A DNA stretch of 64,000 bases from a virus: the UHGV virus genome UHGV-1451962. One strand, written 5' to 3'. Positions 8,301 through 35,819 of the stretch are shown here, piece after piece; within the stretch, counting starts at the first letter, position 1; each line of letters opens with the position of its first letter. The notes under the pieces are model-generated. The model was not told where the DNA came from. It did no database searches and saw only the letters and a list, made by a program, of their open reading frames with translations. The translations under genes were made by a program, and so were the position numbers.

Positions 8301-11300
8301 AGAATCTAAAGATTCTTTATCTCTTGTTGAACAAGATGAGCTAGCTAATTTAAAACAGCAAGAAGCTTCTTTAGAGAGACAAGCTGATCTAAGAGAGCGT
8401 ATAGTTAAAGCTAAACAAGCAGAAATGGCTTATGCTATTGCAGATAATTTTGACAAAAAATATGACAAGACTTATAAGGTAGAGCCAAAAGGTAGAACTG
8501 GTGCTGACACTTCTAATTTTAAAACACAAGAAGATTTAGATAAATGGTATAATAGTTTAAATTCTGACCAACAGGCAAAAGCATTAGACCAATATCAGAA
8601 TTGGACGCAACAGATAGCAGAAGCTACTGCTCAAATGACTTCTGAAGTAGGAGAAGATTTAGCTGAATTAGAACAAGACTATGCTAATTATTTAGGTGCT
8701 GTTGATTCTGGAGCAATTGTGGCCGATCCGTCTAAGATTGCAGATATGCAGGATAAATTAGCAGAATTAAGAAAATTAATATATCCTACTGATAATCAGT
8801 ATTATGAAATGGTTATCCGTCCGGTATTAGATGATGAATCTTTTGATGAAGTAAGAGATAAGATTTTTAGAGCTTTATCTTCTGGAGATATTAAAGGTGC
8901 TGGATTAGCCTTAACAGATGAAATGCGTTCTGCCATTGAAGCTGCTGGAATTTCTGTTGATGATTTATTTAATCAAATTGCAGAAAGAATGTCTCAGGCC
9001 AGAGAGACCATTAAATCTGAAATGGGCGGTACCGAAGAGCAATTAAATAAATTAACTGCCGAAGATTGGGATATTATTCTTACCTTGGATTTAGAAAACA
9101 TTGGTTCTTTTAGAGAATTAATGAAAGCTATTGAAAATGCTAAAAATACAGACCTTAAAGTTAAAGTAGATACTTCTGAGTTAGATGCAGCAAAAGATAA
9201 AATAGAAAGTTTAAATACTAATGAAGAGCCATTGGAAAAAGCCTTGATGTCTTATAAAGAACAAGGTTATCTTACTATGGATCAGACTTATGAATTAATT
9301 AAAGCTAACGAAGAATATGCTCAATATATTAAAAAAGTTGGAGATGAGTATGTTTTAACTACTCAATCTTTAACTGACTTTACTGAAATGGAAAAAGCTG
9401 AGAAATTGGCTTTAGACCAAGCTATTGAAGCTATGCAAAACAAAGGTAAAGTTGATAGAGATTATGCTCAGCAGTATGTTGATCTTTATAGTAGTTTAAT
9501 TGAAAGTAGTAAAAATTGGTCTGACCAAGAACGTGCAGATAGCGGAGAAAATTTTGATAAAAATACTGAAGCACTTAGAAGACAAGCTCAAGCGTTCCAA
9601 GAAGGAAAGATTAGCGCAAGTGAATATTTTGATGCAATAAATCAAAGAGTTAGTGAAACTGGGGATAATTTTGCAAAATTAAGTGATGGTATAGATGGTC
9701 TTAAAGAATCTGATTATGCAAAAACTATGATTTCCTCTACTACTGCTTTGGCTGATGGTTTTAAAGATTTAATCAGTGAAGTTGAAGCTGGCGGTACTAA
9801 TATGCAAGAGTATTATGCTGGTGCAGTTAAAGGTACTAAAGCTTTAATGAATATCACTGCTAAATCTAATAAATATATCACCAAAACAGCAGATGGTTAT
9901 AAAGTTGTTACTGATAATATTGATGATGCAACTAAAGCTACACAAGACTACAAAGATGCTCAGAAAAAAGTTCAAAATTTAAATACTTGGGAAAAACAAG
10001 TTGATCAAGCTGAAGGATTTAAAAAAGCAATAGATGATATTACTTCTTATTATGATTATTTAAAAAATTATTTAAATGATAATAATTGGCTTGAGTTACC
10101 TGATAATTTTGATACAACAACAACCAAATTTAAAAATATGTGCGATACTATGGCTGCTGATATTTGGTCTTTAAAAGATACAAATGCTGAAGCTTTTAGT
10201 GCGATTATGGCTCACATGGAAACTGAAAATGCTGGTTTTGATTCTAGTTTAATTACTTCTCAAAGTCAATTAGCTAGTGCTATGCAAGGAAATGCAACAA
10301 TAGCTTCTTCTGCTATTAATGGTCTAGCTGCTCAAAGTCAGATTAGTATTGGTACTTTATGTCAAATTGGTGGACAGTTATTACAATCTTTGGCAAGTGC
10401 TATTAGCAGTTTTAGTTATACTATTCAGGCGACTGGTGTTGTTGATAATCCTGGTGGTATTGGTTTAGGCGGAGGATTAGTCGATAAAATTGGTGCTTTA
10501 CTTACAACAGGAGGGAAAATTCCTTTTGAATGGGATATGCCTTCTGCCCATATTGATTTAACAGGTTCTGGTTCTGGTGGTTCACCTATGTTTAGCACTA
10601 CTGGTTCTGCAAGAGCGCAAAAAGTTAATGGCTCTGGTAAATCAAATTATATTCGTTCAAAAGACACTGGTGCTGCTAGCAAAGGTGAGTCATCAGGACT
10701 TTTAGAAAATATTTCTAAATTTGGTACTGCATTAGAAGAATATGGTAAACAATCTGTATTGTCTCAAGGTTTAAAAGCATTTGCCCCTTCAGGAGGAGGA
10801 ACTGGTGGTAGAACTCTTAACCCTAGTGGTATTTCTACTGATAACAATCGTCCTTCTGGTGGAGGAGGAGGAAAAGGCAAAGGTGGTAAAGGAAAAGGCG
10901 GAGGTGGTAAAGGAAAGGGAGGAAAAGGAAAAGGCGGAGGTGGTGGCTCCGGCTCAGATGATTCTCCTGAAATCGAAGATGAAGAAATTTTTGATGATAG
11001 ATACCACGATATTAATAATAGACTAGAAGAACAAAGTCAGCTACTAGATAAGATTGATACTGCTAAAGATAGAGCTTTTGGTGTTAAGAAATTAGAAAAA
11101 TATAAAGAAAAAATTGAAGCAATTAATAAAGAACAAGAATTATATAAAGAAAAATTAAAAAAGACTGAGGAATATTTAAAAGAAGATTTAACTGATTTAC
11201 AAAAGAACTTTTCTGGTGTTAAATTAAATATAGACTCTGATAGTAAAGCTTTATTAAATTATGAAGATTTAGAAAAATGGGCAATAGAAGAATATAATAA

Positions 11301-13986: not shown

Positions 13987-16900
13987 ATGAATAATATATC
14001 AGAGCAAATTCTTCAAGCAGCTGATATTTTAGCGCAAAAAAGATTATCCGAATTAAAATATGATATAACAGTTCAAGGCACTGTTGAGTCTTTAGTTAAT
14101 TTAAATACTGGTGAATATAAAGTTAAATATAATGGTAATATATTTTCTGCTTTTAGTAATGATTTAAAAACTACTTATAGAATTGGAGATAATATTTATA
14201 TAAAAATTCCAGAAGGAGATTTTTCTAATAAAAAATTAATTGAAAATAAAGTTACTGATAAGTCTTTAACTGAAAATAATTTAAATGAGCTAGAAAATTC
14301 TGTTTCTCCTGTTGGGCCTACTTTTGATGTTTTTTATAATTATGACAAAATAAAAGAATATGGGGTAGTTGCAGGAGCACCCAAAGATGATAAATTGTCT
14401 ATTACAGAGATTTTCAACAGAGAAACTGTAAGTAATTTTTCCGATATTCCTTTTTTACAATATGCTAATAAATATGAATATATTAAAATTCAGGCCGATT
14501 TTTTAACACTCTTTAGTGATATTCATTCTGAGGGAAATTATGGCTTAGAATTGGCATTTTCATCTAATGGAGAAGATGTTTTTTATAGACTTGATGTTTC
14601 AAATTTTAATGGTAGTCCTTATTCTTTTAATACTTATAGCACGCAATCAGTTACTGTAAAAATACAAACAAAATTTTTAACTGGTTTAAAAAGTATTAAG
14701 TTATTTGAAGAAGGATTTCAATACGATAAATATTTATCTAATGGTGAATATATTTATTTAGATAAAGCAACAGGCAAAGAATTAATACATGATAATGAAA
14801 CCAATGAATATTATTATTTAAATGATAATAATGAAAAAATAATTGTAAATCAAGAGAATAGAATAGAAAAAATAAATGATAAATCACCGAATATTTTTGT
14901 TAAAAATATTCAAGTACAGTATGTAGAAGTAAAAAATTTAATAGACAATCTATATTATTTAAGAATTAAAACACCTAATGGTCAAATGTTTACAGACCAA
15001 ATAGATGAAATTACTTTACAAGGACAATTAATTTACAATGGCAATTCAGTTTTAACAGAAAAGAATAGTACCTGTTATTGGTATGAAAGAGATTATTCTG
15101 TGATGATAGGTGATGAGGCCTATGATAAAAATGTTGGTTTTGGATGGCGACCAATTTCCGCAAATTTTGATACTCTTGTTTTAAAAGATGAAGATGTGGT
15201 ATATAAAAAAGTATTAAAATTAATGGTAGTTTATTCTGATAATGTTGTAATGTCTGAAGAGATAGTTATTAGTAATTATAATACTGATTATAATTGTTGG
15301 CTAGAGCAATTAACTGTTGGAGATACTATTGATTTACATATTAAAAATAATAGAGATGAAGATGAATTAGTCGGTGATTGGTATTTATCTTTACCTGATG
15401 GAAGTTATCAAGAGGTACCTAATGGTAAACAAAAATCTGAAATAGAAGTTAAGCAATATCTTTTATATTCTGCTGTAACTTTTTATTGTAGTATTTATGA
15501 TAAAGATAGAAAAAATATTATTGCCACTGAAGAATATACAATCACTAATACTGAATCACAAGAAGATTTAAGTATAAAGTATATTGGAGAAGATTCTTTT
15601 AGATATGATTCTAATGGTGATATTACTATTGAGGATTCTGAAAAAGAACGTACTATTGAATGTCAATTTGCCTGGAAAGATGGAGTCGGCACTTCTTATG
15701 ATATGACATGGTATAGTCCAGATGGGAGTTTATTAACAACAGGTGAAAGAGTTAATCCTGTTGATTCAATGATAGAAAATCTCTGGGTTGACAAATATAA
15801 TATTTTGCATTATACTATTAAACAGAAGTATAAAATAAATTTTAACAATAATACTATTCAAATTAAAGTTACTACTTTAGACCAAAAGGAATATATTTTT
15901 AATAAAGAAATTCTTTTTGTTAAAGATGGTGATCAAGGTACTAATGGTACTACTTATATCGCAGCTATTCGTCCTTGTGATGATAATGGTATTAAATTAA
16001 GTGGTTTACAGCCTTTGGTTTTTAATCCTTTAACCAAAGAGCTTTTAGATGAACAAGAAAGGATTAGAAATGATAATACTCTTTCTAATGAAGAAAAAAT
16101 AAAACAAATTTTAGAAGTTAGAAAAAGAGGATGGAATACTTTAAAGTTAAGAGTGTATGTTTATAAAGATGGAGAATTAATCAATAATTTAAATGGTAAT
16201 AAATATACTATTAAATATGAATGGTCTGGGACAAATATAAAATTACCTGAAGCAGAAACTGATGATGAATATATTAGCATTTCCGGCAATAGTGATCCAG
16301 TTATAAACTTTTATTCTACTTCTGATAAATATGAATTTTATATAAAAATTAAAATAACTGTTAGAGAAAAAGCAGGAGATTCTACTGTTTATCTTTATTC
16401 TATTTATCCTATTGATGTTGCAGTTAATGGTTTTGAATATAATAGAGTTGACATAAATGAAATTCCTTCTTATATTAAATATAATTCTTCTGGTTTAAAT
16501 CCTTCTTTTTATAGTAATGCTTTAAAATATACTTTTGATGAAATAGATCAAACTAAATTAGTAGAATCATTAAATAAAGATATTTTAGTAATTGAAGATA
16601 AACAACAAAAGGAATCTGAAATTATAGATAGATATTTAGTACCTTCTTCTAATTTTATTTTTGAAAGAGATTCAGATAAAAATAATAGTAGTATTGGTAT
16701 TTTAAAATGCCCCGACCCGCAATATAATACTAGATATTTATTACACTCTATTGTTATGTATCTTGATACATATGGCAATGAAGCTATTAATGGCTGGGAT
16801 GGAACACAGTTAGATATAGATAACAAAGGCCAATATGTTTTTGCCCCGCAGGTTGGTGCAGGTACTAAAAATGAACAAAATCAATTTACCGGCGTTGTTA

Positions 16901-18306
16901 TGGGTAAAGATAGCGGGCAGAAAAAAATTGGTTTATATGGTTATCAAAATGGTATTACTACTTTTGGTTTAATGCAAGATGGTTCTGCATTTTTTGGTGC
17001 TTCTACTAGCGGAAGAATTAATATTGATGGAACAAAAGCAAATATTTATGGCGGTTTAACAGAAAATGGCGCAAATAGTATGAAATTAACTTTATCTGAT
17101 ATGCGGATGACTGGTAGTACAAAAGCTATTAATATTAATGATTCAAAAGGTGAATCTGCTTTTTATGTAACTTATAATGGTTATATGTATGCTAATAATG
17201 TTAAAATAAAAGGTAATGTTGAAGCAACCACTTTAACAGCAACTAAAAGCGGCAAGATAGCTGATTTTACTATTGATTCAACTGGATTAAGAGGAGGTTC
17301 AATTACTTGTAGAAATTTAGTTGCTAACACTGATGGAGAAATTGCTGGTTGGAAAATTACTGGGCAAAGTTTAAAAAGTCCTAACGCTTCAGTAAATCAG
17401 CCTTCTGAGGCGGGAGGAGTGCCAACTTGGACAGGCACTACTTTAAATAGTAGTGGACAAATTTATACTCAGAAATTATATGCAAGTGGTGGAGATATTG
17501 GTGGCTGGCAGATTAATTCTACTAATTTATACGGAAGTGCTGAAGGAAAATTTCAAAGTATTACTTATGATGATGAAGGTAATATGAGTGTATCTGAAAT
17601 AACAGGTATTAAATTTACTGAATTACAAAAAGGCGGCCAGATTAAAACCAATACAGTACAAATTTTTAGTGATCCACAAGCTGAAGGACAAATAGGGAAT
17701 TATATTGGATATATGGGTCTTGTCTACGGAAGCACTACCAGTAAAGATACTACATATAACATAGGTATATATAGTCTTACTGGTGCTCGTCTTGAAGCTA
17801 AAGGAGATATAGCAATAGCCGCAGGAAAAGGTAGTATTTGGATGCATGGTAATATAATGGCGAGAAAAGGTTTTTATTGTGGAAATAGTTCTAATATTGA
17901 TAATTTAGATAAAAAATTTCTTGTTGAAAATAGAATTATTAGACTGGGTGCAGAGACAGATGCTGACCAATTGTATATTAGAAGTTCTTGGTTAGTTTTA
18001 AAAGATGATGGAATGTCTATTAAAAAGCCTACAACAATTACAAAAGATGTAACAATTTCTGCTAATCAAAAATTAAGTTTGTCTGGAAATGGTTATATTT
18101 CAACTCCAACTATACAGACTGATAAAATTCAACCAGTGGGTAAAGAGACTGGTACAATAACAGTGAGTGGAACTATGAGCGGTAGTTTTAAGGGTAGTCT
18201 TTCTACATCAAGTGGTTATTATTATAATAGTAGTGGAGCTTACACAAAACTTTTAGCAGGTAGTATAATAGATGATAGTATTAAAGTTTTTGCTAAATTT
18301 TCGTGA
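13987..18306 (+). CDS. large tail or baseplate structural protein (1439 aa)
   Basis: Long ORF with RBS (aaaggag) directly downstream of the tape-measure gene; Gly/Thr/Ser-rich beta-like C-terminal region typical of tail tip or fibre proteins. Confidence 0.45.
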   Translation: MNNISEQILQAADILAQKRLSELKYDITVQGTVESLVNLNTGEYKVKYNGNIFSAFSNDLKTTYRIGDNIYIKIPEGDFSNKKLIENKVTDKSLTENNLNELENSVSPVGPTFDVFYNYDKIKEYGVVAGAPKDDKLSITEIFNRETVSNFSDIPFLQYANKYEYIKIQADFLTLFSDIHSEGNYGLELAFSSNGEDVFYRLDVSNFNGSPYSFNTYSTQSVTVKIQTKFLTGLKSIKLFEEGFQYDKYLSNGEYIYLDKATGKELIHDNETNEYYYLNDNNEKIIVNQENRIEKINDKSPNIFVKNIQVQYVEVKNLIDNLYYLRIKTPNGQMFTDQIDEITLQGQLIYNGNSVLTEKNSTCYWYERDYSVMIGDEAYDKNVGFGWRPISANFDTLVLKDEDVVYKKVLKLMVVYSDNVVMSEEIVISNYNTDYNCWLEQLTVGDTIDLHIKNNRDEDELVGDWYLSLPDGSYQEVPNGKQKSEIEVKQYLLYSAVTFYCSIYDKDRKNIIATEEYTITNTESQEDLSIKYIGEDSFRYDSNGDITIEDSEKERTIECQFAWKDGVGTSYDMTWYSPDGSLLTTGERVNPVDSMIENLWVDKYNILHYTIKQKYKINFNNNTIQIKVTTLDQKEYIFNKEILFVKDGDQGTNGTTYIAAIRPCDDNGIKLSGLQPLVFNPLTKELLDEQERIRNDNTLSNEEKIKQILEVRKRGWNTLKLRVYVYKDGELINNLNGNKYTIKYEWSGTNIKLPEAETDDEYISISGNSDPVINFYSTSDKYEFYIKIKITVREKAGDSTVYLYSIYPIDVAVNGFEYNRVDINEIPSYIKYNSSGLNPSFYSNALKYTFDEIDQTKLVESLNKDILVIEDKQQKESEIIDRYLVPSSNFIFERDSDKNNSSIGILKCPDPQYNTRYLLHSIVMYLDTYGNEAINGWDGTQLDIDNKGQYVFAPQVGAGTKNEQNQFTGVVMGKDSGQKKIGLYGYQNGITTFGLMQDGSAFFGASTSGRINIDGTKANIYGGLTENGANSMKLTLSDMRMTGSTKAININDSKGESAFYVTYNGYMYANNVKIKGNVEATTLTATKSGKIADFTIDSTGLRGGSITCRNLVANTDGEIAGWKITGQSLKSPNASVNQPSEAGGVPTWTGTTLNSSGQIYTQKLYASGGDIGGWQINSTNLYGSAEGKFQSITYDDEGNMSVSEITGIKFTELQKGGQIKTNTVQIFSDPQAEGQIGNYIGYMGLVYGSTTSKDTTYNIGIYSLTGARLEAKGDIAIAAGKGSIWMHGNIMARKGFYCGNSSNIDNLDKKFLVENRIIRLGAETDADQLYIRSSWLVLKDDGMSIKKPTTITKDVTISANQKLSLSGNGYISTPTIQTDKIQPVGKETGTITVSGTMSGSFKGSLSTSSGYYYNSSGAYTKLLAGSIIDDSIKVFAKFS

Positions 18307-26263: not shown

Positions 26264-26297
26264 AAGGGGAAGATTTTATTCTTCCCCTTATGTTTTA
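26264..26297 (+). terminator. rho-independent terminator (weak T-run)
   Basis: Stem aaggggaaga / tcttcccctt with 6-nt loop followed by atgtttt. Confidence 0.4.
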
Positions 26298-26313
26298 TAT
26301 AAGGAGGAAAATT

Positions 26314-26916
26314 ATGGCTTTATTTAAAGTTTTTTATGGAACAGAAGCTGAGATGAATCAAGTCGCAGTAAAAGAGTCTTATGCTTATATCCTAGAAGAG
26401 AATGATTGTATGTATGTCGATTTTAATAATGCTAGACATAAATTAAATGCGGGATATGCAGAAAAACTTCGGAAATTTAATGCGGCTGGAGCAGTTGAAA
26501 TAGAAATTGATCCAGAAGAATTGGTTTTAAATTCTGATATTATTGATATAGAACATGGTGGCACTGGTGGCAAAACTGCGGCTGAAGCAAGAACTAATTT
26601 AGATGTTTATAGTAAAACAGAAGTAAGCGATAATATTAAAACTGCTACTGATAAGGTCACTTCTAAGGCTTATCCTGCTACATTGTCCGTAGGAGCTTGG
26701 ACATTAGATGGAGAAGTTTATAAAATGTCTTATTTAATTGAAACTTTGAAGTGTGGTGCTGATGGTACGGTTCCGCCAATTATTACTTACACCAACAATT
26801 TAGAAGAATATTCTAAAATTGAAAAGGCTACTGCTACTCCTGGTTTTGGAGTTACTTTCGAGATAAAAGAAAAACCTACTGATAGTATAGGTATTATTAT
26901 TGTAGATAATTGTTAA
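26314..26916 (+). CDS. tail fibre protein (N-terminal GGTG-type motif)
   Basis: Contains DIEHGGTGGKTAAEARTNLDVY, which matches the conserved N-terminal tail-fibre motif; start placed at the ATG 7 nt after aaggagg rather than the track start at 26290. Confidence 0.5.
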   Translation: MALFKVFYGTEAEMNQVAVKESYAYILEENDCMYVDFNNARHKLNAGYAEKLRKFNAAGAVEIEIDPEELVLNSDIIDIEHGGTGGKTAAEARTNLDVYSKTEVSDNIKTATDKVTSKAYPATLSVGAWTLDGEVYKMSYLIETLKCGADGTVPPIITYTNNLEEYSKIEKATATPGFGVTFEIKEKPTDSIGIIIVDNC

Positions 26917-26929
26917 TAAAAATAAAATG

Positions 26930-26962
26930 GGTAAGAGCTAAATGCTCTTACCCATTTTTTTG
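26930..26962. terminator. bidirectional rho-independent terminator at strand switch
   Basis: Stem gggtaagagc / gctcttaccc with 5-nt loop; T-run on plus strand and U-rich flank on the minus strand; lies between convergent genes. Confidence 0.6.
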
Positions 26963-26964
26963 TT

Positions 26965-27402
26965 TTATATAATATGATAATAAGGTTTTTCTTCATCAAA
27001 GATTTTCCATCTAAGAAAATCATCTAAAATAATTCCTATTAGACCTAGAATAAACCAAAGACAACTAAAAGATAAACATATTTGTCCTTTATAATTAAAA
27101 GGTAAATGTGAATAATCCCAAATATTAAGTTGTAATTGAATGTTTAAAATATATCCAAATAAAAATTCTAAACTTGTTATAATTGCGGTTCCAATTAATC
27201 CTTGAGCCAATAAAGACCAATTCCAAGGAATATTTTCATTTAAGCTACCTAAAATTAAAAAAGATAAACCGCCTAAGATAAACATTGACCAATGAGTATT
27301 TCCTGAATGTATATATGTTTTGTAAACAAATTCAATTAACCAGTAAATACTTCCGCCAATCAAAAATAATATAGAATTTCTAAAAAAAGAATTAATTTTC
27401 AT
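26965..27402 (-). CDS. integral membrane protein (function unknown)
   Basis: 145-aa ORF with several hydrophobic helix-length segments; overlaps the upstream minus-strand ORF by 11 nt. Confidence 0.4.
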   Translation of the reverse strand: MKINSFFRNSILFLIGGSIYWLIEFVYKTYIHSGNTHWSMFILGGLSFLILGSLNENIPWNWSLLAQGLIGTAIITSLEFLFGYILNIQLQLNIWDYSHLPFNYKGQICLSFSCLWFILGLIGIILDDFLRWKIFDEEKPYYHII

Positions 27403-28051
27403 ATTTTAATTCTATGGCTTTAATTTCCTTATAATTTTTAGCAGTATAAATTTGTGTTTTATATTGTTGCATTTTTTTATAATAAGGATAAACAAAATCA
27501 GAAATAGCTAAAGCTAAAGCAGTCAAATTTTCAACTGTCCAAGATGTACATTCTTCTTGGCGAGCATGCCATTCTAATCTAGGATTCTCTGCTCCAGCCT
27601 GAACTGCCATAGAATATTGATTCATATTTAGGCTAATTTCTGATTGATCTTCTTCTGTAACTCCATATTGCTTTCCATCAATCCAAGTCAAAGGATTATT
27701 AATGAGGAAATTAGCGAAAGCTTTTTTATTTTCTTCTTGTTTCATTTTTTGATATTCTTCTAAAGAATAGTAATATGTTAATTCATTTTTTTCATTATCA
27801 TATTTATAAAAATTAGGTTCATAATCTTCTGGAATATTACCATCAAAAGATAAGATTCTTACTGCATCAATAGAACCTGTCATATCTGAATTAGCCAAAA
27901 TGAAATGGCTATTGCAATCTGAGCCTATTACTCCTGTAGCTTCACCTTCCGAGCAAGCAATGACAATACTTGGGTTGGATTGTAATTTGATGTAGCGGAT
28001 TTCCGCAAGGATATCGACTACTATATTTTCTCTATTGATTAATAAATACAT
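27392..28051 (-). CDS. hypothetical protein, translationally coupled to the DGR reverse transcriptase
   Basis: 219-aa ORF whose start overlaps the RT stop by 1 nt; no recognisable motif. Confidence 0.4.
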   Translation of the reverse strand: MYLLINRENIVVDILAEIRYIKLQSNPSIVIACSEGEATGVIGSDCNSHFILANSDMTGSIDAVRILSFDGNIPEDYEPNFYKYDNEKNELTYYYSLEEYQKMKQEENKKAFANFLINNPLTWIDGKQYGVTEEDQSEISLNMNQYSMAVQAGAENPRLEWHARQEECTSWTVENLTALALAISDFVYPYYKKMQQYKTQIYTAKNYKEIKAIELKYEN

Positions 28052-29307
28052 TATAATATTTCAACTCCTTTAAATAATGAATGGAAATAATTATCAAGAT
28101 TTTGTATAATATAAAAAGTAGTACCTTTATTTATATGTTCTCTAAAACCTCGATATGATTCTTGAATTTCTATATCAGTTATTTTACCTTGTAGCCAAAG
28201 TTGGTGCATTTTTCTCATTTTTCTATATTGTCGCTTTATTTTCTTTTTAAATGGAGTTTGAATAATTTTATTCGTATTAGTTAAATAAAAATCCCATTTT
28301 AAATATTTAAATGGATTATGTTTATCCGAACGTCTTTTATGAGGATAATTATTTTTATCTAGTTTTATTGGACTAATTTTAATTATTTTAGTTTTTCTTT
28401 TGTTACATTTTAAATGTATTTTATTTAATTCATTTTCAATTTTATTAAGACATTCTTTTAAATAATCTTTGTCATTATGCAAAATATAAATATCGTCCAT
28501 ATAACGTCCATAATATTTTAAATGCAAATGCTCTTTTGCATAATGGTCAATTCCATTTAATGCCAATAAAGCTAATAATTGAGATGCTTGACTACCTAAA
28601 CCTAAACTTTTATGATTAAATTCATAATAAGTACAATTTTTATAAAATTGTTTAGGATAAATTATCTTATATTTTTGTTTTTTGATGATATAGTATTGTT
28701 TATTAGGAATAGGAACTGTATCTTTTGTGACTGAAAAACAAAAGGTATCAATAATATAATCAATTAATTTAAATACTCGTTTTTCTTTAATATAATGTTT
28801 TGCCATTTGCTTTAAAGAATTATGGTCTATTGAATCAAAAAATTTTTGAATATCAATTCTTAAACCATAAAAAGATTTTCCTAAACCATATGTTCTGTGC
28901 GCTGCTTGTAAATGTTTACGCACTTCTAGCAAAGCAAAATCAATTCCTTTTCCTTTTAATGTAGCACAATTATCATAAATAAATTTTGGAGTTAGTTCTG
29001 GAATAAGAACTTGCGAACATAATGTATTTTGTGCCAATCTGTCATAAATATGGCACGCTCTTATATCTCTGGGTTTGCCCCGCTCAATTATACTAAAACT
29101 GTTAAAAACTAATTGTTCATAACTGTCATTTTCTAATTGTTCTTTAAGCGTTAAGATGTTATTTAATCTATTTTCTTCAAAATTAACTGTACTATCTTTC
29201 CATCTTACGTTTCGGCAAATAGAATAAGAAGAATCATAAAAAGCGTCAAAATTACAAAAACGCTGGAAAAGATTTTCTTCTATAAAAAATTCTCCTTTTT
29301 TTATCAT
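28051..29307 (-). CDS. DGR-type reverse transcriptase
   Basis: 418 aa; RT motif 2 (GLRIDIQKFFDSIDH), DGR-type motif 4 (GLGSQASQ = GxxxSQ), catalytic YMDD (YGRYMDDIYIL); lies directly downstream of the TR in the canonical target-avd-TR-RT order. Confidence 0.85.
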   Translation of the reverse strand: MIKKGEFFIEENLFQRFCNFDAFYDSSYSICRNVRWKDSTVNFEENRLNNILTLKEQLENDSYEQLVFNSFSIIERGKPRDIRACHIYDRLAQNTLCSQVLIPELTPKFIYDNCATLKGKGIDFALLEVRKHLQAAHRTYGLGKSFYGLRIDIQKFFDSIDHNSLKQMAKHYIKEKRVFKLIDYIIDTFCFSVTKDTVPIPNKQYYIIKKQKYKIIYPKQFYKNCTYYEFNHKSLGLGSQASQLLALLALNGIDHYAKEHLHLKYYGRYMDDIYILHNDKDYLKECLNKIENELNKIHLKCNKRKTKIIKISPIKLDKNNYPHKRRSDKHNPFKYLKWDFYLTNTNKIIQTPFKKKIKRQYRKMRKMHQLWLQGKITDIEIQESYRGFREHINKGTTFYIIQNLDNYFHSLFKGVEIL

Positions 29308-29588
29308 GCGGTGCTAGATTGTGTGCTCTGACACGCACATCCGCAATCTTAATTAATTATCTGTATAGATAAAAGGTTAAATTCTCCTTAAATGAAAGCT
29401 ATCTATTATAATCTAAGTCTTTTATTTAATATTTCCTCTCCTTCTTGGTTTTAAAACCAATGCGTCCAGAAAATACCAAAATAGATGAGTTATAACATAG
29501 GTTATAATTTTCTGGGGTAACACTTAGTCGTCTCAGTCGATGTCGCCTGCGGCTCCATCACCAGAGACAGTTAGAGTTCTCATCTAAT

Positions 29589-29693
29589 CGGGCGCGAGGT
29601 AATTGTTGTTGTTGTAGTTGGTATTGTTCGCATTACCATCAGAGTTGACATTGCACACATTGTTCGTGTTGTTCGAGTTGTAGTAGCGAGACC
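29589..29693 (-). repeat. DGR template repeat (TR)
   Basis: About 105 nt, 84/105 identical to the VR; 20 of 21 differences lie at plus-strand T (adenine on the transcribed minus strand); non-coding, between the Avd-like ORF and the RT. Confidence 0.85.
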
Positions 29694-29726: not shown

Positions 29727-30191
29727 TTATTTGTATCGCTGAGAATAAATTAGATTATCTCTATTTATTCTATCAAGAAGATTTTGTTTTAATTTGTAAG
29801 TAAGTTTAGCAACATATTTGAAAGATTTATTTTTCTTTTTATTATTTAACCCATATTCATAAATACATAAATCTAATTGCCTTAAAATTGAATCACAATA
29901 TCTTATTGATTTATTAAAGTAATCTGCTCTTTCAACTAAAGTTTTTTTATTTTTTAGATTGATTAAACTAGCAGAGAAAGCATATCCATGTGCGTTTTTG
30001 GCACATTTTAAAATATCTGCACCAAAAGCTGAATAATAGTATGGATTACCAAGAATACCTGGTTTAATATGAGAACCATCATCTAATTCTTGATATGGAC
30101 GAACTAAAATTAATACTTGATGGACTAACTTTCTTGCATCATTTAAATAATCATTTTTAGATTGATGCCTATCTTTTTTTCTTACTGACAA
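29727..30191 (-). CDS. avd: Avd-like accessory variability determinant (putative)
   Basis: 154-aa basic (Lys/Arg-rich) ORF with TTG start after aaaggagg, placed between VR and TR as Avd is in known DGRs; assignment by position and composition only. Confidence 0.5.
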   Translation of the reverse strand: MSVRKKDRHQSKNDYLNDARKLVHQVLILVRPYQELDDGSHIKPGILGNPYYYSAFGADILKCAKNAHGYAFSASLINLKNKKTLVERADYFNKSIRYCDSILRQLDLCIYEYGLNNKKKNKSFKYVAKLTYKLKQNLLDRINRDNLIYSQRYK

Positions 30192-30225: not shown

Positions 30226-30254
30226 ATTATACCAGAAAATTTTTAAAAAGTCAA
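30226..30254 (-). promoter_or_regulatory. sigma70-like promoter for the avd-TR-RT transcript
   Basis: On minus strand: TTGACT, 17-nt spacer, TATAAT (exact consensus -10), preceded by an A/T-rich UP-like tract; about 35 nt upstream of the avd TTG start. Confidence 0.5.
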
Positions 30255-30315
30255 AGAAAAAAAATTTTTAGAAAAAATTTTTTTCCCAGAAAAGGTGAAA
30301 GCATTTTTATACTAT

Positions 30316-30341
30316 GGCATTGGCCCTTTTGGGCCAATGCC
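30316..30341 (-). promoter_or_regulatory. GC-rich hairpin 3' of the VR (candidate DGR target-recognition hairpin)
   Basis: Perfect 11-bp inverted repeat ggcattggccc / gggccaatgcc with 4-nt loop, about 30 nt downstream of the target-gene stop; no U-run on the minus strand, so it is not a canonical terminator. Confidence 0.5.
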
Positions 30342-30369
30342 AATATAACCTTACTGTATAACTTTACAG

Positions 30370-32154
30370 TTATCCAATAACGAAAGCGGGCGCGAGGTAA
30401 CGGTAGTTGGCGTAGTAGGTAAAGTCCGCACCACCATCAGAGTCGACACGGCACACATAGCCCGTGTAGTCCGAGTAGTAGTTGCGAGACCGCTCCCAAT
30501 ACCATTTGGAATCTCCTGAACTGTTACCATTAGCATCTTGAATGTTTTTTATACGGGAGCTGTCACTTGTGTAATAATCATAAGCAGCATTATATCCTTT
30601 AGTACATTCTGCATTGGAAACAGTAGAATTAGCAGTGCTGATTGGAGAATAACTATCTAATCCCATTTCTCTCTCAGAAGGAATCCAAACAGTTTCGTTA
30701 TTATAACTAACATTAGCACTTCTATTATCATCCCAATTATCGCAAGTACCTTTAGATACTGTTTTTATAGATGCTTTAGCAGCACAAGCATTATAAAAAT
30801 TTTGACAATAACTTCTAGCATTAGAACCAATCCATTGTGCGCTATTATCACCAAAAGTAGTCATATTCGGCAAGAGATAAACACTATGAAAAGCTAAAGT
30901 TTTATCTCCATCTTTGTCATAGCCAATACAACGCATTGTAACAGCATTTGCTCCTAAAACATTAGTAGATAAATTCATCTTTTTAGTTTTACCAACTAAA
31001 GCTTGACGTTCTGAAGCAGAAGAATTGTTAAGCCAAGACTTTAAGCCAGCCCACCAAGAAGCATCTCCCGCAGCACTCTCATTTCCCCAAGTCCAATATG
31101 TAGCAGTAGCAGTAATTTTTTTATTCGCGGGAGTTGTATAATTGGTACTGGCTGCTATTGATACAGTAATAGTAGCAGTTCCCGCGGTTGTACCATTGCC
31201 TTTAATGGTAATTGTTTTACCGCTTACTGTTGCTGAAGCCACATTAGAATTAGTAGAAGTTACAGAAATTGTACCAGTAGAATTAGTGGTCACAGTAACT
31301 TTTACACCAGTAGAATAATTAGATGCGTCAATAGAAACAGTAGAAGTGCTTAGACTTAATGTTCCTGTTGCTTTTTGAATAGACCAATCAACATTTTTCG
31401 CGGTTGTTGTCTTATCAGGCCATCTGTAATTATTTTTAGGAGTAAAAGTAGCTGTATATTTTCCTGCATTAATTCCCGATGTAGTTCCTCCAATAGTCAT
31501 GTAACTTGTATTATAATTTGACCAATTTGGACTTTGCGAATTGGCGTTATAAGTTAAAGTTCCAGTTTGAGAAGGAATAGGAACTGTTTTTCTTTCTACT
31601 GTTACAGAAAAAGTAGTAGTTTTAGTAATACTATTTTCTGTATAAGAAACAGTAATTGTTTGAGTACCAACTGTATTTAAAACAGAAGGTGAAGTTGTCC
31701 AACCAGAAACAGTAGCGGTTTTACCATCAGAATAAGTGGCAGTAACAGACATTCCGGCAGATTCAAATGTCTCGCCATATTCATAAATTGTCTTAGTTGG
31801 TTTTGTGCTTGTGATGCTGGTTAGTGCATGGATAACAGTAACTGCTTGCTCGGCGGTACAAGTAACTCCTCCTTCAGAGTAAGTAATAGTAACTTTAGTT
31901 ACTCCATCAGTTAAAGGAGAAGGTGTTACAGTATATCCAGTTACCGCAGTAGAAGAAACAACAATATTATCAATGGCATAATTGGCAGTTATAACCATTC
32001 CTGTTGTTTCAAATTCTTGTCCAGCAACGTAAGATGTACGGTTTGGTGGAGTAGTAACTTCAATAGAGTGGAGTGCTATTGAGCTTCCGCCACCTTTTCC
32101 GCCTTGTTCAGTTAAAATGCATTTAACAGGCAAGGTATAAGACCTCCTTATCAA
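30370..32154 (-). CDS. DGR target protein: Ig-like repeat protein with C-terminal lectin-fold-like variable domain
   Basis: 594-aa ORF; tandem Thr/Ser-rich Ig-like segments (e.g. GVTKVTITYSEGGVTCTAEQAVTVIH), then a C-terminal domain containing WIPSEREMGL and the VR; likely true start is the TTG at 32133 (9 nt after aaggagg) rather than 32154. Confidence 0.8.
   Translation of the reverse strand: MIRRSYTLPVKCILTEQGGKGGGSSIALHSIEVTTPPNRTSYVAGQEFETTGMVITANYAIDNIVVSSTAVTGYTVTPSPLTDGVTKVTITYSEGGVTCTAEQAVTVIHALTSITSTKPTKTIYEYGETFESAGMSVTATYSDGKTATVSGWTTSPSVLNTVGTQTITVSYTENSITKTTTFSVTVERKTVPIPSQTGTLTYNANSQSPNWSNYNTSYMTIGGTTSGINAGKYTATFTPKNNYRWPDKTTTAKNVDWSIQKATGTLSLSTSTVSIDASNYSTGVKVTVTTNSTGTISVTSTNSNVASATVSGKTITIKGNGTTAGTATITVSIAASTNYTTPANKKITATATYWTWGNESAAGDASWWAGLKSWLNNSSASERQALVGKTKKMNLSTNVLGANAVTMRCIGYDKDGDKTLAFHSVYLLPNMTTFGDNSAQWIGSNARSYCQNFYNACAAKASIKTVSKGTCDNWDDNRSANVSYNNETVWIPSEREMGLDSYSPISTANSTVSNAECTKGYNAAYDYYTSDSSRIKNIQDANGNSSGDSKWYWERSRNYYSDYTGYVCRVDSDGGADFTYYANYRYLAPAFVIG
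30387..30491 (-). repeat. DGR variable repeat (VR) at the 3' end of the target gene
   Basis: Matches the TR with substitutions almost exclusively at TR adenine positions; encodes the C-terminal ~35 residues (…YYSDYTGYVCRVDSDGGADFTYYANYRYLA…); shared GC-rich 3' boundary cgggcgcgagg. Confidence 0.85.
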
Positions 32155-32250: not shown

Positions 32251-32286
32251 ATTGGGAAAAGGATATAAAAATATCCTTTTCCCAAT
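32251..32286. repeat. perfect 16-bp-arm palindrome in the divergent intergenic region
   Basis: attgggaaaaggatat-aaaa-atatccttttcccaat; flanked at 32199-32210 and 32383-32394 by a 12-bp inverted repeat (aaagtacacctt / aaggtgtacttt). Confidence 0.6.
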
Positions 32287-32424: not shown

Positions 32425-34170
32425 ATGGCTGTTCAATGTGTACTTGTCGGAAAAGGCAAGGATGATGTATTTACTGCTGTTTATGGCGAAACTACATTTG
32501 ATAAAGTGTTAAAAGCTTATAATGAAAATAAAGTAGTTCAAGTGATTTATCAAAATCGTATTTATTATTTAGATAATACTACTGTTGTAGATTCTCCTGA
32601 AGCATTTTCTTTTATTTCTGCTTTTAGTAATCAAAATGATGAAGCTGGTGAAATAAAGCATTATGTAATAAGTTTAATGACAGGAGATAGTTGGTCTGGG
32701 CCTTTCTTACAGAAATCTACTCCAGCAACTCACGCGAATACTCATAGTAAAAATGGTGATGATCCACTTACCCCCGCAGATATTGGAGCTATGGAATTAT
32801 CAGAAAATGTTCTTAAACAATCAAATGAAGATATTACTTCTCAAGTAGCGCAAGCTTTATTTGGGGATTTAGTTCCTTTTAGCGGTGGAACCATGACTGG
32901 TTTGTTAAATGTTCTTACTCCTGTTAGAGATAGTAATGCTACTACTAAAAAGTATGTAGATGATGCTTTGAGTGAGAAAATTGGAATGGATGGCATTGGC
33001 GATTTGCATGTATGGAAGAAGACTATAATAACAAAACAGGAGATTCCAGCAAGTTTTACTTTAGGTGATGTACACTCTGGTTCGTTTCGTTTTGTTAGTG
33101 GTGAAACTAATGTGTTGTTAGTAGGTACTCCTAAAGTTAATGAGAGTGGTGTCGTTACCTTAACAAACTCTGCGCAGTATAATTTTAATTATAATTCTTC
33201 ATCTCCTAGTATATCTGATCTGCGAGGACAGTATTGCATGTTTACCATGATAGCCGATCAATTTTCTAGTTTTACTGCCAATAAAGTTTTTTATATACCC
33301 ACTGATGCAAACTATATTTCTTTATCAAGTTCTAAAAATATTACTAAATATCAAGATGTTAATGGTACACCTAAAATTCCTGCCGAAGTAACTACTACCT
33401 ATCCCGCATCTACTAATCCCAATGCGTATCAAGAGGGGAGCGATGCAAAACCAGCAGGATATGTACTTGGTAATGTGATAACAGGTTCATTTTGTATTGG
33501 TAATACAACAGCACCTACGAGAGCTGCTTATTATGTCGCATCTGATATTTCTGTATCTGATAATGGTGTTTTATCTATTTCAACACAAACAAATATAACT
33601 ATTGGTGGTAATTTTTTTGTATCTAGCCGTGATTTAATTGCTGGTAAATTTATACAAATTTATAATAAAGGGTCTATGTCTTCTGTTTTATCTGAACCAT
33701 TCACAACAGTACCAGGCCCAATTATTTATATTCCGAATGATGTAAACTTAACGTCTGGCGGTGATGGAAATTTAAATTTATATATTGATCGCTACCAACC
33801 TATTACTGGCTACGCTGCTATCCCCGCAGGCACCACTATTGAATATCTGGGGAAGTTGGGAGATAAGACTAGGGTAATAATTGGCTCGTATATTGGGACA
33901 GGGGTCTGCGGGGCAGAGAATCCGACCAAAATAAAAACGAGTTTTTTACCGAAACTTGTAGCAATAAATGGAGTAGGAAATACCGGCAGTACGGGCATTA
34001 TTCTGTTTTTTCGAGATATGAACTATGCGTTCTCAGAAATCGGCTCAAGTACCAACTTTAACTTTACTAATATAACCTGGTTATCAGACGGAGTACATTG
34101 GTATTCTAGCAAAGTCCTTATGCAGGGGAATAAGCAGGGGGCAATTTATAAATACATTGTTATCGGTTAA
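32425..34170 (+). CDS. tail fibre protein
   Basis: 581-aa ORF with RBS (aaaggag); contains the tail-fibre motif FSGGTMTGLLNV and an HANTHSKNGDDPLTPADIGA segment; last ~110 codons are visibly GC-richer. Confidence 0.6.
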   Translation: MAVQCVLVGKGKDDVFTAVYGETTFDKVLKAYNENKVVQVIYQNRIYYLDNTTVVDSPEAFSFISAFSNQNDEAGEIKHYVISLMTGDSWSGPFLQKSTPATHANTHSKNGDDPLTPADIGAMELSENVLKQSNEDITSQVAQALFGDLVPFSGGTMTGLLNVLTPVRDSNATTKKYVDDALSEKIGMDGIGDLHVWKKTIITKQEIPASFTLGDVHSGSFRFVSGETNVLLVGTPKVNESGVVTLTNSAQYNFNYNSSSPSISDLRGQYCMFTMIADQFSSFTANKVFYIPTDANYISLSSSKNITKYQDVNGTPKIPAEVTTTYPASTNPNAYQEGSDAKPAGYVLGNVITGSFCIGNTTAPTRAAYYVASDISVSDNGVLSISTQTNITIGGNFFVSSRDLIAGKFIQIYNKGSMSSVLSEPFTTVPGPIIYIPNDVNLTSGGDGNLNLYIDRYQPITGYAAIPAGTTIEYLGKLGDKTRVIIGSYIGTGVCGAENPTKIKTSFLPKLVAINGVGNTGSTGIILFFRDMNYAFSEIGSSTNFNFTNITWLSDGVHWYSSKVLMQGNKQGAIYKYIVIG

Positions 34171-34222: not shown

Positions 34223-34534
34223 ATGTTTTATATTAATTCAATAAAACAAAATAATAATTATGGTAATCCTATGGGTCAATATTTTAAAGACTCAATACAA
34301 TTACCAGATGAATTATTAAACAATTATCTTGAAACAAAAGGATTTTGTAATTTTGAAATTCAAGATAATATTATTACAAAAATAATTGTAAATCAAAATG
34401 ATTTAGATGATTATAATAATAACCATCTAGAGGTTAAACCAGAACCATCAGCAGAGCAAGATATAAATGCAATGTTAGTAGACCAAGAATATAGAATAAC
34501 ATTACTAGAATTAGGTATGAAAGGAGATTCCTAA
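34223..34534 (+). CDS. hypothetical protein (XkdW-like position downstream of tail fibre)
   Basis: 103-aa ORF with strong RBS (aaaaggagg); positional inference only. Confidence 0.35.
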   Translation: MFYINSIKQNNNYGNPMGQYFKDSIQLPDELLNNYLETKGFCNFEIQDNIITKIIVNQNDLDDYNNNHLEVKPEPSAEQDINAMLVDQEYRITLLELGMKGDS

Positions 34535-34668
34535 TGTTATATAGAGTTTTAAAAAGAATGATTGAAGCAGGTCAAACAGAAGGCCTGCAAGAAAAAATAG
34601 ATATTTTCTTTGCGGCTGGCCGCATTACCGCAGACCAATACACTGAACTCACTAAATTATTATCATAA
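34534..34668 (+). CDS. small XkdX-like protein (44 aa), absent from the ORF track
   Basis: ATG overlapping the previous stop (taATG); encodes MLYRVLKRMIEAGQTEGLQEKIDIFFAAGRITADQYTELTKLLS, resembling the small XkdX-family proteins found after tail-fibre genes. Confidence 0.3.
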   Translation: MLYRVLKRMIEAGQTEGLQEKIDIFFAAGRITADQYTELTKLLS

Positions 34669-34730: not shown

Positions 34731-35357
34731 GTGAAAAAGGTGTTATATGGTTATGCAAGAGTTTCTTCCCGCGACCAAAATATAGATAGACAAATAATTG
34801 CATTAAAAGAGGTCGGCGTAGAAGAAGAAAATATCTTCATAGATAAACAATCAGGTAAAGATTTTAATAGACCTTCTTATCAAGAATTATTAGAAACAAT
34901 TAAAACAGGAGATATGGTAATTATAAAATCCATAGATAGATTAGGTCGAAATTATTCAGAAATTTTAGAACAGTGGAGAATTATTACTAAAGTTCTGAAT
35001 GTAGATATTAAAGTTATTGATATGCCGTTACTCGATACCTCCTACGGGGATGGTACATTAAATAACTTTATAGCTGATTTAGTTTTACAAATTCTCTCTT
35101 TTCAGGCAGAACAAGAGAGAATTTGTATTAAACAGCGACAAGCAGAAGGAATAGCTGCTGCAAAACAAAAAGGAGTTAAATTTGGCCGACCCCGCAAACA
35201 GCTTCCTTCTAATTTTGAAGATTTATATTATAGATATTTAAATAATGAACCAGTGGATAGATTATCAAAAGATTGTAAAGGATTATCTAAATCTACTTTG
35301 CGGTTGCGACTACAAGAACGTCATTCTAAAGATAAAGCATTGGGTGTAATTATTTAA
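34731..35357 (+). CDS. small serine recombinase (resolvase/invertase family)
   Basis: 208 aa, GTG start after agaggtg; N-terminal catalytic motif YGYARVSSRDQ, then DRLGRN; C-terminal HTH region with GRPRK. Confidence 0.8.
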   Translation: MKKVLYGYARVSSRDQNIDRQIIALKEVGVEEENIFIDKQSGKDFNRPSYQELLETIKTGDMVIIKSIDRLGRNYSEILEQWRIITKVLNVDIKVIDMPLLDTSYGDGTLNNFIADLVLQILSFQAEQERICIKQRQAEGIAAAKQKGVKFGRPRKQLPSNFEDLYYRYLNNEPVDRLSKDCKGLSKSTLRLRLQERHSKDKALGVII

Positions 35358-35414: not shown

Positions 35415-35819
35415 ATGAATTATTATGAATTATGGACACAAATTTGGCAGATTTGTTTAGTCCCCTTATTTGCGGCTTTAACTGCTTTTGTTGTTAAATA
35501 TTTAAATGCTAAAAGTCAAGAAGTTTCTAAAAATATAAATAATGCAACTGCTGAAAAATATATAGAAATGATTAATAATACTGTTACAAAATGTGTTATT
35601 GCTACAAATCAAACTTATGTTAATAGTCTTAAAGAGCAAGGTAAGTTTGATGTAGAAGCTCAAAAGAAAGCTTTTAAACAAACTTATGAAGCAGTTATAA
35701 GTATTTTAAGTGAAGATGCAAAACAATATATTAAAGAAACAACCAATGATTTAAATACGTATTTAACACAGTTAATAGAAGCAGAGGTAAATAAACGTAG
35801 ATTAGAACCAGAAAAATAA
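35415..35819 (+). CDS. membrane-anchored protein (function unknown)
   Basis: 134-aa ORF with N-terminal hydrophobic segment (ICLVPLFAALTAFVV) and charged helical remainder. Confidence 0.4.
   Translation: MNYYELWTQIWQICLVPLFAALTAFVVKYLNAKSQEVSKNINNATAEKYIEMINNTVTKCVIATNQTYVNSLKEQGKFDVEAQKKAFKQTYEAVISILSEDAKQYIKETTNDLNTYLTQLIEAEVNKRRLEPEK

Follow-up and report, generated by a model that had tools for sequence, protein, structure and literature searches.

The two genes that follow, in translational coupling, a DGR reverse transcriptase (RT) gene in this phage genome are probably the conserved distal pair of a receptor-binding (tail-fibre) module and not a part of the DGR machinery. The first gene encodes a 219-aa protein of the DUF4376 family (ORF219) and the second a 145-aa membrane protein of the PF06541 family (ORF145), and the same pair is found in many gut Clostridia phages and prophages, with or without an RT. 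Both protein families were already known; the finding is modestly new, and what it adds is a widespread module of fibre, chaperone and membrane protein in which DGRs nest.

Organization of the DGR locus

The window, that is, the whole stretch of 64,000 nucleotides that was analysed, belongs to a phage with a GC content of 30%, in which baseplate and tail genes are found upstream of the locus and an invertase gene, a holin gene and further genes downstream. The features of the locus are:

26924..26958, bidirectional intrinsic-terminator-like hairpin, 15-bp stem with 6 GC pairs, T-runs on both strands
26965..27402, minus strand, ORF145 (145 aa), taken from the ORF list, PF06541 family and phrog_20274
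27392..28051, minus strand, ORF219 (219 aa), taken from the ORF list, DUF4376-family protein
28051..29307, minus strand, DGR RT (RVT_1, E 7e-15; phrog_1423, E 3e-75)
29586..29693, minus strand, TR, a 108-nt repeat 80% identical to VR
29727..30191, minus strand, Avd-like accessory gene (154 aa), identified from its position and from its homologues in relatives
30226..30254, minus strand, sigma-70-like promoter match, TTGACT-17-TATAAT with an upstream TG, 11/12, a consensus match only
30313..30343, minus strand, GC-rich hairpin TTGGCATTGGCCC-AAAA-GGGCCAATGCCA, 12-13-bp stem, read from the sequence
30370..32154, minus strand, DGR target (594 aa), Big_3-containing (E 3e-11), fibre/RBP-like

The DGR that adjoins ORF219 and ORF145 is genuine, with adenine-specific mismatches between its repeats: VR (30384-30491) is located at the C-terminus of the 594-aa target and differs from TR at 22 positions, 21 of which are TR adenines. 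The homologues of the target in relatives also match DUF6273. No Pfam match of its own was obtained for the Avd-like gene, which lies between the target and TR and has homologues in the same place in relatives, 47-52% identical to it.

The RT stop and the ORF219 start have one base in common (TAATG) and 11 nt (27392-27402) belong to both ORF219 and ORF145, exactly as the preliminary description of this DNA had reported. The bidirectional terminator proposed there was likewise recovered, as the hairpin at 26924-26958, located between ORF145 and a convergent 208-aa tail gene (26290..26916, plus strand); the sole terminator-like site that the scan detected is thus the one after ORF145. The promoter-like site at 30226..30254, upstream of avd, is strong and the best such match in the region, and the hairpin at 30313-30343, just downstream of VR and of the target stop, is devoid of a T-run. 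Because a promoter-like site precedes avd, a terminator follows ORF145 and the hairpin at the target stop has no T-run, the likely transcription unit, as read from the sequence, is (target)-avd-TR-RT-ORF219-ORF145. The gene overlaps are also kept in relatives at about 59% identity, in agreement with the earlier proposal that the two genes are tightly coupled to, and likely co-expressed with, the RT.

The hairpin at 30313-30343 is similar to the hairpin or cruciform that adjoins DGR variable repeats. The gene order of the locus, in which a target whose C-terminus contains VR precedes an avd-like gene, TR and RT, is that of the mtd-avd-TR-brt cassette of Bordetella phage BPP-1 and of gut-phage DGRs that have DUF6273 targets (PMC10743442, PMC11792537), and the locus shares adenine-specific mismatches and a GC-rich hairpin after VR with canonical DGRs; unlike these, it continues beyond the RT gene with two further genes in translational coupling. 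The DGR literature that was searched does not mention DUF4376, a chaperone gene or a membrane-protein gene in the neighbourhood of a DGR.

On the other side of the target gene, a perfect palindrome with a 16-bp stem (ATTGGGAAAAGGATAT-TTTT-ATATCCTTTTCCCAAT, 32251-32286) occupies the divergent intergenic region that separates the target gene from a 581-aa gene, and could be an operator or a terminator. The 581-aa gene (32425-34170) is fibre-like and is found, together with a 103-aa ORF (34223-34534), beside a DNA invertase gene (34731-35357, plus strand; Resolvase domain, phrog_125). Relatives of the phage have a second DUF4376 gene after a second, variable fibre-like gene, and in these relatives the same invertase is located beside the second DUF4376 gene and a protein of variable length (367-462 aa). 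The arrangement of the window is similar to that of the Mu S-U and P2 H-G fibre and Tfa modules with their Gin/Cin-type invertases, in which a fibre gene is also followed by a small chaperone gene, and to which the invertase gene (34731..35357) beside a second fibre-like gene adds a further likeness; unlike in Mu and P2, a search of the window revealed neither an invertible segment nor convincing recombination sites, and diversification is by the DGR. A 19-nt inverted repeat (30499-30517 and 34522-34540), one copy of which is situated just 5' of VR and the other where the 103-aa ORF by the invertase ends, was considered as the sign of a shufflon and rejected as unsupported: the ORFs have no homology to the target, similar repeats are abundant by chance and the relatives are devoid of comparable ones. 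Two giant ORFs (2871 aa, 5317-13932, and 1439 aa, 13987-18306, both on the plus strand) were also observed in the window, upstream of the baseplate and tail genes.

Families of the two RT-coupled proteins

Remote homology searches and structure prediction, both suggested in the preliminary description, placed ORF219 in the DUF4376 family and ORF145 in the PF06541 family. Both are real genes, as indicated by their database relatives (393 for ORF219 and 624 for ORF145 at E<=1e-3) and by the conservation of ORF145. No similarity of either protein to Avd, HRDC or nucleic-acid-binding families was detected in searches of Pfam, NCBIfam, PHROGs and PDB sequences, and PDB sequences searched with the profiles of the two families gave nothing meaningful.

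ORF219 is a member of the DUF4376 family by sequence and by predicted fold. Its match to the Pfam model PF14301 is marginal (E 2.1e-5, 25.4 bits for a cutoff of 25, residues 103-212), a point in which it differs from canonical DUF4376 proteins, and the same precomputed match is attached to the database protein identical to ORF219 (P0001), which is encoded on a contig of 137,671 bases. The AF2 model (pLDDT 80.6) consists of a beta-rich N-terminal domain (approximately residues 1-95) and a helical C-terminal DUF4376 domain (approximately 97-212), and a Foldseek search against BFVD gave 25 matches at E<=1e-3 (best 2.4e-12), most of them named 'DUF4376 domain-containing protein'; these matches are DUF4376 proteins of myo-, sipho- and podoviruses. 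A profile search of 1.84 billion representatives retrieved 649 clusters, and among the best 150 of the 649 representatives, proteins of 107-539 aa, most match only positions 95-218 or so, consistent with the pattern of the family, in which the C-terminal domain is conserved and the N-terminal part is variable.

Conservation of the C-terminal domain and variability at the N-terminus are also characteristic of tail-fibre assembly (Tfa) chaperones (PMC7882524). DUF4376 proteins encoded downstream of the fibre gene are experimentally implicated as tail-fibre chaperones in the Alteromonas phages V22 (gp27, PMC7289586) and A5 (gp9, PMC10579305), the H-fibre of Campylobacter CJIE1 needs a DUF4376 partner, encoded by the downstream gene, for its function (PMC7882524), and a C. 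difficile prophage has, immediately after its RBP gene, a gene whose product acts as a chaperone (PMC9615553). ORF219 is similar to these DUF4376 chaperones in its C-terminal DUF4376 domain, in its size (they are approximately 200-240 aa), in its variable N-terminal part and in the location of its gene downstream of a fibre/RBP gene. It is unlike the V22, A5 and CJIE1 proteins in that avd-TR-RT separates its gene from the fibre gene, in its coupling to the RT, in that the distal domain of its fibre is hypermutated by the DGR and in that a PF06541 gene always comes next, a partner of which there is no mention in the Alteromonas and Campylobacter papers. The best reading of ORF219 is that of a fibre chaperone or cap, which we consider rather probable and which would act on the 594-aa fibre.

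ORF145 is a member of PF06541 (ABC_trans_CmpB/TMEM229), which it matches with 54 bits for a gathering score of 25.9, and it also matches phrog_20274, a family that carries no assigned function. It has a multi-pass topology, in line with what had been described: the AF2 model (mean pLDDT 90.8) contains four helices of 20-26 residues (5-30, 38-57, 64-89 and 110-135). Across relatives that are 47-97% identical, 31 mostly polar residues are invariant, including E24, H37, N55, Q67, E79, N87, W95-D96-Y97-S98, D127, D128 and R131, and the fold is Insig-like, of a lipid-binding type. Homologues of PF06541 occur in bacteria and animals (TMEM229), and the family is present in RT-less phage loci and beside the cellular genes gyrB and EamA. 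ORF145 has in common with the family at large its conserved polar residues and four transmembrane helices, and differs from it in being part of phrog_20274, a subfamily carried by phages and closely tied to DUF4376 genes. PF06541 has been listed as a candidate transporter (PMC11130926), and among NCBIfam models the only match of ORF145, to an oligosaccharide repeat-unit polymerase, is below threshold (20.8 bits for a cutoff of 40) and gives a weak lead. Taken together, the conservation, the homologues near cellular genes and the Insig-like fold suggest a membrane protein that binds a ligand or is catalytic.

The DUF4376-PF06541 pair and the position of the DGR

Related loci were surveyed from both sides, about 280 in all. 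The PF06541-side set consisted of 203 loci from viral contigs, bacterial genomes and public assemblies, the six-frame translations of which were scanned with HMMs for RT, DUF4376 and PF06541; PF06541 proteins were clustered at 80% identity and the 82 clusters (lineages) that had at least 3 kb of upstream sequence were counted. A DUF4376-like gene is located immediately upstream, on the same strand, in 51 of the 82 lineages and, independently, Pfam assigned PF14301 to 47 of 77 upstream neighbours of PF06541. In 21 of the 51 paired lineages (about 40%) the 2.6 kb upstream contain an RT in the same orientation, which in most cases abuts the DUF4376 gene, and in 29 there is no RT anywhere in the locus. 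The genes upstream of DUF4376 belong to RVT_1 (16), DUF6273 (8), Mu_Gp48 (6), Phage_tail_fib (3) and Baseplate_J (2), and those downstream of PF06541 to endolysin and canonical holin families.

The DUF4376-side set, fetched with an alignment of the ORF219 family (A2), comprised 77 loci, 43 of which are outside the window's own family. PF06541 is downstream on the same strand in all 43 of these distant loci, with a gap of -7 to +113 nt in 39, and 39 of the 43 are also devoid of an RT in their 6-kb flanks. Baseplate and fibre genes precede the pair, holin and endolysin genes usually follow it, and its two genes frequently overlap; among 150 DUF4376 representatives no fusion to PF06541 or to RT was found. 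A DUF4376 gene with PF06541 next to it is therefore a tight and conserved pair that is independent of the RT. Its strictness is not accounted for by a simple chaperone model, and the DUF4376 chaperones known from phages of Gram-negative hosts (Alteromonas, Campylobacter) have been described with no partner of this kind. A literature search found no paper on the pair, nor any that ties DUF4376 or PF06541 to DGRs, and a search for a link between DGRs and tail-fibre chaperones was equally negative.

A family of gut phages (longest contigs approximately 135-148 kb) has the block target-avd-RT-ORF219-ORF145 in synteny with that of the window, with about 53-64% amino-acid identity (47-52% for Avd) and with the same tail genes, invertase and holin as flanks. 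Against 50,697 phage records, no match was obtained by megablast of the locus or by tblastn of ORF219, and tblastn of ORF145 retrieved only five unannotated gut-phage fragments. In-frame TAG codons where homologues have glutamine indicate TAG-to-Q recoding in some relatives (L001:8001-8666, L001:1803-2495, L045:5379-6035); in the window one of 49 long ORFs has a TAG stop, and the 64 kb yielded no tRNA gene.

In unrelated lineages the DGR occupies several positions relative to the pair. Locus L025 is arranged as tail fibre (VR)-TR-RT-DUF4376-PF06541-65 aa-M15 endolysin, and L047 as a 2528-aa DUF6273 protein (VR), a 265-aa gene, TR, RT, DUF4376, PF06541 and a lysozyme/CHAP endolysin, whereas in L028 the order is TR-RT-DUF6273 target (VR)-DUF4376-PF06541-65 aa-endolysin, so that DUF4376 follows the target and not the RT. 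All three are confirmed DGRs, given that TR/VR mismatches are at adenines in 15 of 16 cases in L025, 20 of 21 in L047 and 15 of 17 in L028. L046, a relative of L047, has no RT, and 47 nt after its gene for a giant DUF6273 protein come DUF4376 and PF06541; the DUF4376 proteins of L046 and of L047, which has the RT, are 58% identical. In the window avd-TR-RT lies between the fibre gene and ORF219, and in L046 and L028 DUF4376 is directly 3' of the fibre gene. In several lineages with the order RT, DUF4376, PF06541 the RTs are only 21-28% identical to that of the window, and in L145 a second RT is located between DUF4376 and PF06541. Two RT genes that flank or interrupt the DUF4376-PF06541 module were observed in the prophages L145 (1-4400) and L180 (5000-9100), and also in L134, L081 and L153. 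A separate observation concerns an RT-less lineage of about 125 kb (L005:3610-8450; also L006-L008, L065 and L070), in which a radical-SAM/SPASM, cupin and NeuB cluster is located between the ORF219-like gene and PF06541, the PF06541 gene overlapping the end of NeuB.

Locus L045 records the loss of a DGR. Its target homologue (49% identical, the C-terminal part included) is separated by a 219-nt spacer from intact homologues of ORF219 (53%) and ORF145 (54%), so that the DUF4376 gene stands 3' of the target with a deletion scar in between. The spacer (L045:5160-5378) carries a 45-codon ORF that fuses the N-terminus of Avd to the C-terminal tail of the RT: it starts with MSVRKKDRHQ, identical in 10 of 10 positions to the first residues of the window's Avd, and ends with a recognisable RT tail (..EKGTTFYIIQ..FKGVDIV*), the stop of which still overlaps the ATG of the next gene as TAATG. 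Because this ORF joins the start of Avd to the end of the RT, the sequence indicates that the L045 lineage once had avd-TR-RT and lost it by deletion, keeping both downstream genes and their coupling.

These data bear directly on the earlier suggestion that ORF219 and ORF145 may be unrecognised DGR accessory factors, dedicated like Avd to TR-RNA handling, cDNA synthesis or retrohoming. The translational coupling of both genes to the RT, the recurrence of the order RT, DUF4376, PF06541 in lineages with very divergent RTs, the RT in about 40% of the paired lineages and the location of PF06541 directly after an RT in L145 all favour such a role, but the pair does not co-occur obligately with a DGR RT: its homologues are widespread in loci with no DGR, an outcome that the preliminary description had itself named as contrary evidence, and 29 of the 51 paired lineages and 39 of the 43 distant loci have no RT in their flanks. 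The retention of the pair in L045 after deletion of the cassette, the placement of DUF4376 after the target in L028, the nature of ORF145 as an integral membrane protein and the documented role of DUF4376 as a fibre chaperone in phages described without a DGR also argue against it, making an accessory function very improbable.

Roles of the pair and significance of the module

The other proposal of the preliminary description, that the membrane protein is holin-like, can be extended to a holin, an antiholin or another lysis-timing membrane protein whose gene happens to lie beside the last tail gene, with ORF219 still as the fibre chaperone. The four transmembrane helices, the length of about 145 aa and the charged C-terminus of ORF145 would suit a holin, and PF06541 directly precedes endolysin or holin genes in many relatives (for instance in L047, and in L025 and L028 by way of the 65-aa gene); ORF145, however, matches no holin family in Pfam or PHROGs. 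Holins are generally poorly conserved, whereas ORF145 has 31 invariant, mostly polar residues and homologues beside cellular genes, and recognised holins are encoded downstream in many of the same loci. In the window the ORF145 gene is not adjacent to an endolysin gene, and the holin (35415..35819; phrog_13712, E 3e-32) is 8 kb away in another operon, and in the L005 lineage another six genes lie between PF06541 and the closest gene for a lysis enzyme. We consequently regard a lysis protein as unlikely.

It is unlikely, too, that the two proteins form a two-component module directed at the envelope, for superinfection exclusion or for masking or modification of the receptor, instead of or besides chaperoning. 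The strict pairing (43 of 43) with frequent gene overlap, the coupling of PF06541 to NeuB/cupin/rSAM sugar genes in the L005 lineage and the lipid-binding type of fold of ORF145 are in accordance with such a module. In other phages exclusion or membrane-protein genes are also located beside receptor-binding genes, as is the case for llp of T5, cor of phi80 and N15 and lom of lambda. Against it, no fusion proteins were found among the 150 DUF4376 representatives, no PADLOC defence system was matched, DUF4376 proteins with no such partner already have a chaperone role, and a lipid or glycan activity of ORF145 is a weak lead. As to the role of ORF145 itself, our favoured guess places modification of the envelope or receptor, or exclusion, before an accessory function in lysis.

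The explanation that we prefer, the conserved distal pair of a receptor-binding module, partly preserves the remaining earlier suggestion, that of unrelated cargo, in so far as the genes are unrelated to retrohoming; they are nevertheless not a random acquisition, but make up the distal, conserved end of the module of the receptor-binding protein, in which the DGR cassette is nested. ORF219 would act as an intermolecular chaperone or transient cap for the folding and trimerisation of the DGR-diversified 594-aa fibre protein, and ORF145 would bind or act on a lipid or another small ligand in the membrane of the infected cell. The ancestral gene order was probably fibre, DUF4376, PF06541 and lysis genes, and in the present lineage avd-TR-RT sits between the fibre gene and the putative chaperone gene, with the result that ORF219 and ORF145 share translational coupling, and probably a transcript, with the RT. 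What stays constant is the unit of fibre/RBP, DUF4376 and PF06541, while DGR cassettes and, in other lineages, other cargo occupy variable junctions inside it. The simplest explanation for the RT in many paired lineages is that DGRs target exactly these fibres, although the RT near the pair in 21 of 51 paired lineages looks high and could hide a functional link.

A more speculative version, which we hold to be unlikely, is that DUF4376 and PF06541 are a two-protein system dedicated to the C-type-lectin-type RBPs of Clostridia phages, made up of a soluble cap or chaperone and a lipid-binding membrane partner. Such a system might mature hypervariable fibres at the membrane or control their quality there, or mask the receptor in the infected cell and, if real, it would render the fibres tolerant of DGR hypermutation and explain why DGR cassettes often nest in the module.

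For the annotation of DGRs, the conserved receptor-binding module implies that genes coupled to an RT are not automatically accessory factors, given that here they are the target's own partners, and that the DGR cassette has been inserted within an operon of fibre and chaperone genes. It also raises the question of how a chaperone that presumably engages the distal domain of the fibre copes with a hypermutated tip. DUF4376-PF06541 is a very common, and unstudied, gene pair between the fibre and lysis genes of gut Clostridia phages and prophages, and RBPs or tailocins engineered from such phages may need the downstream pair to be co-expressed.
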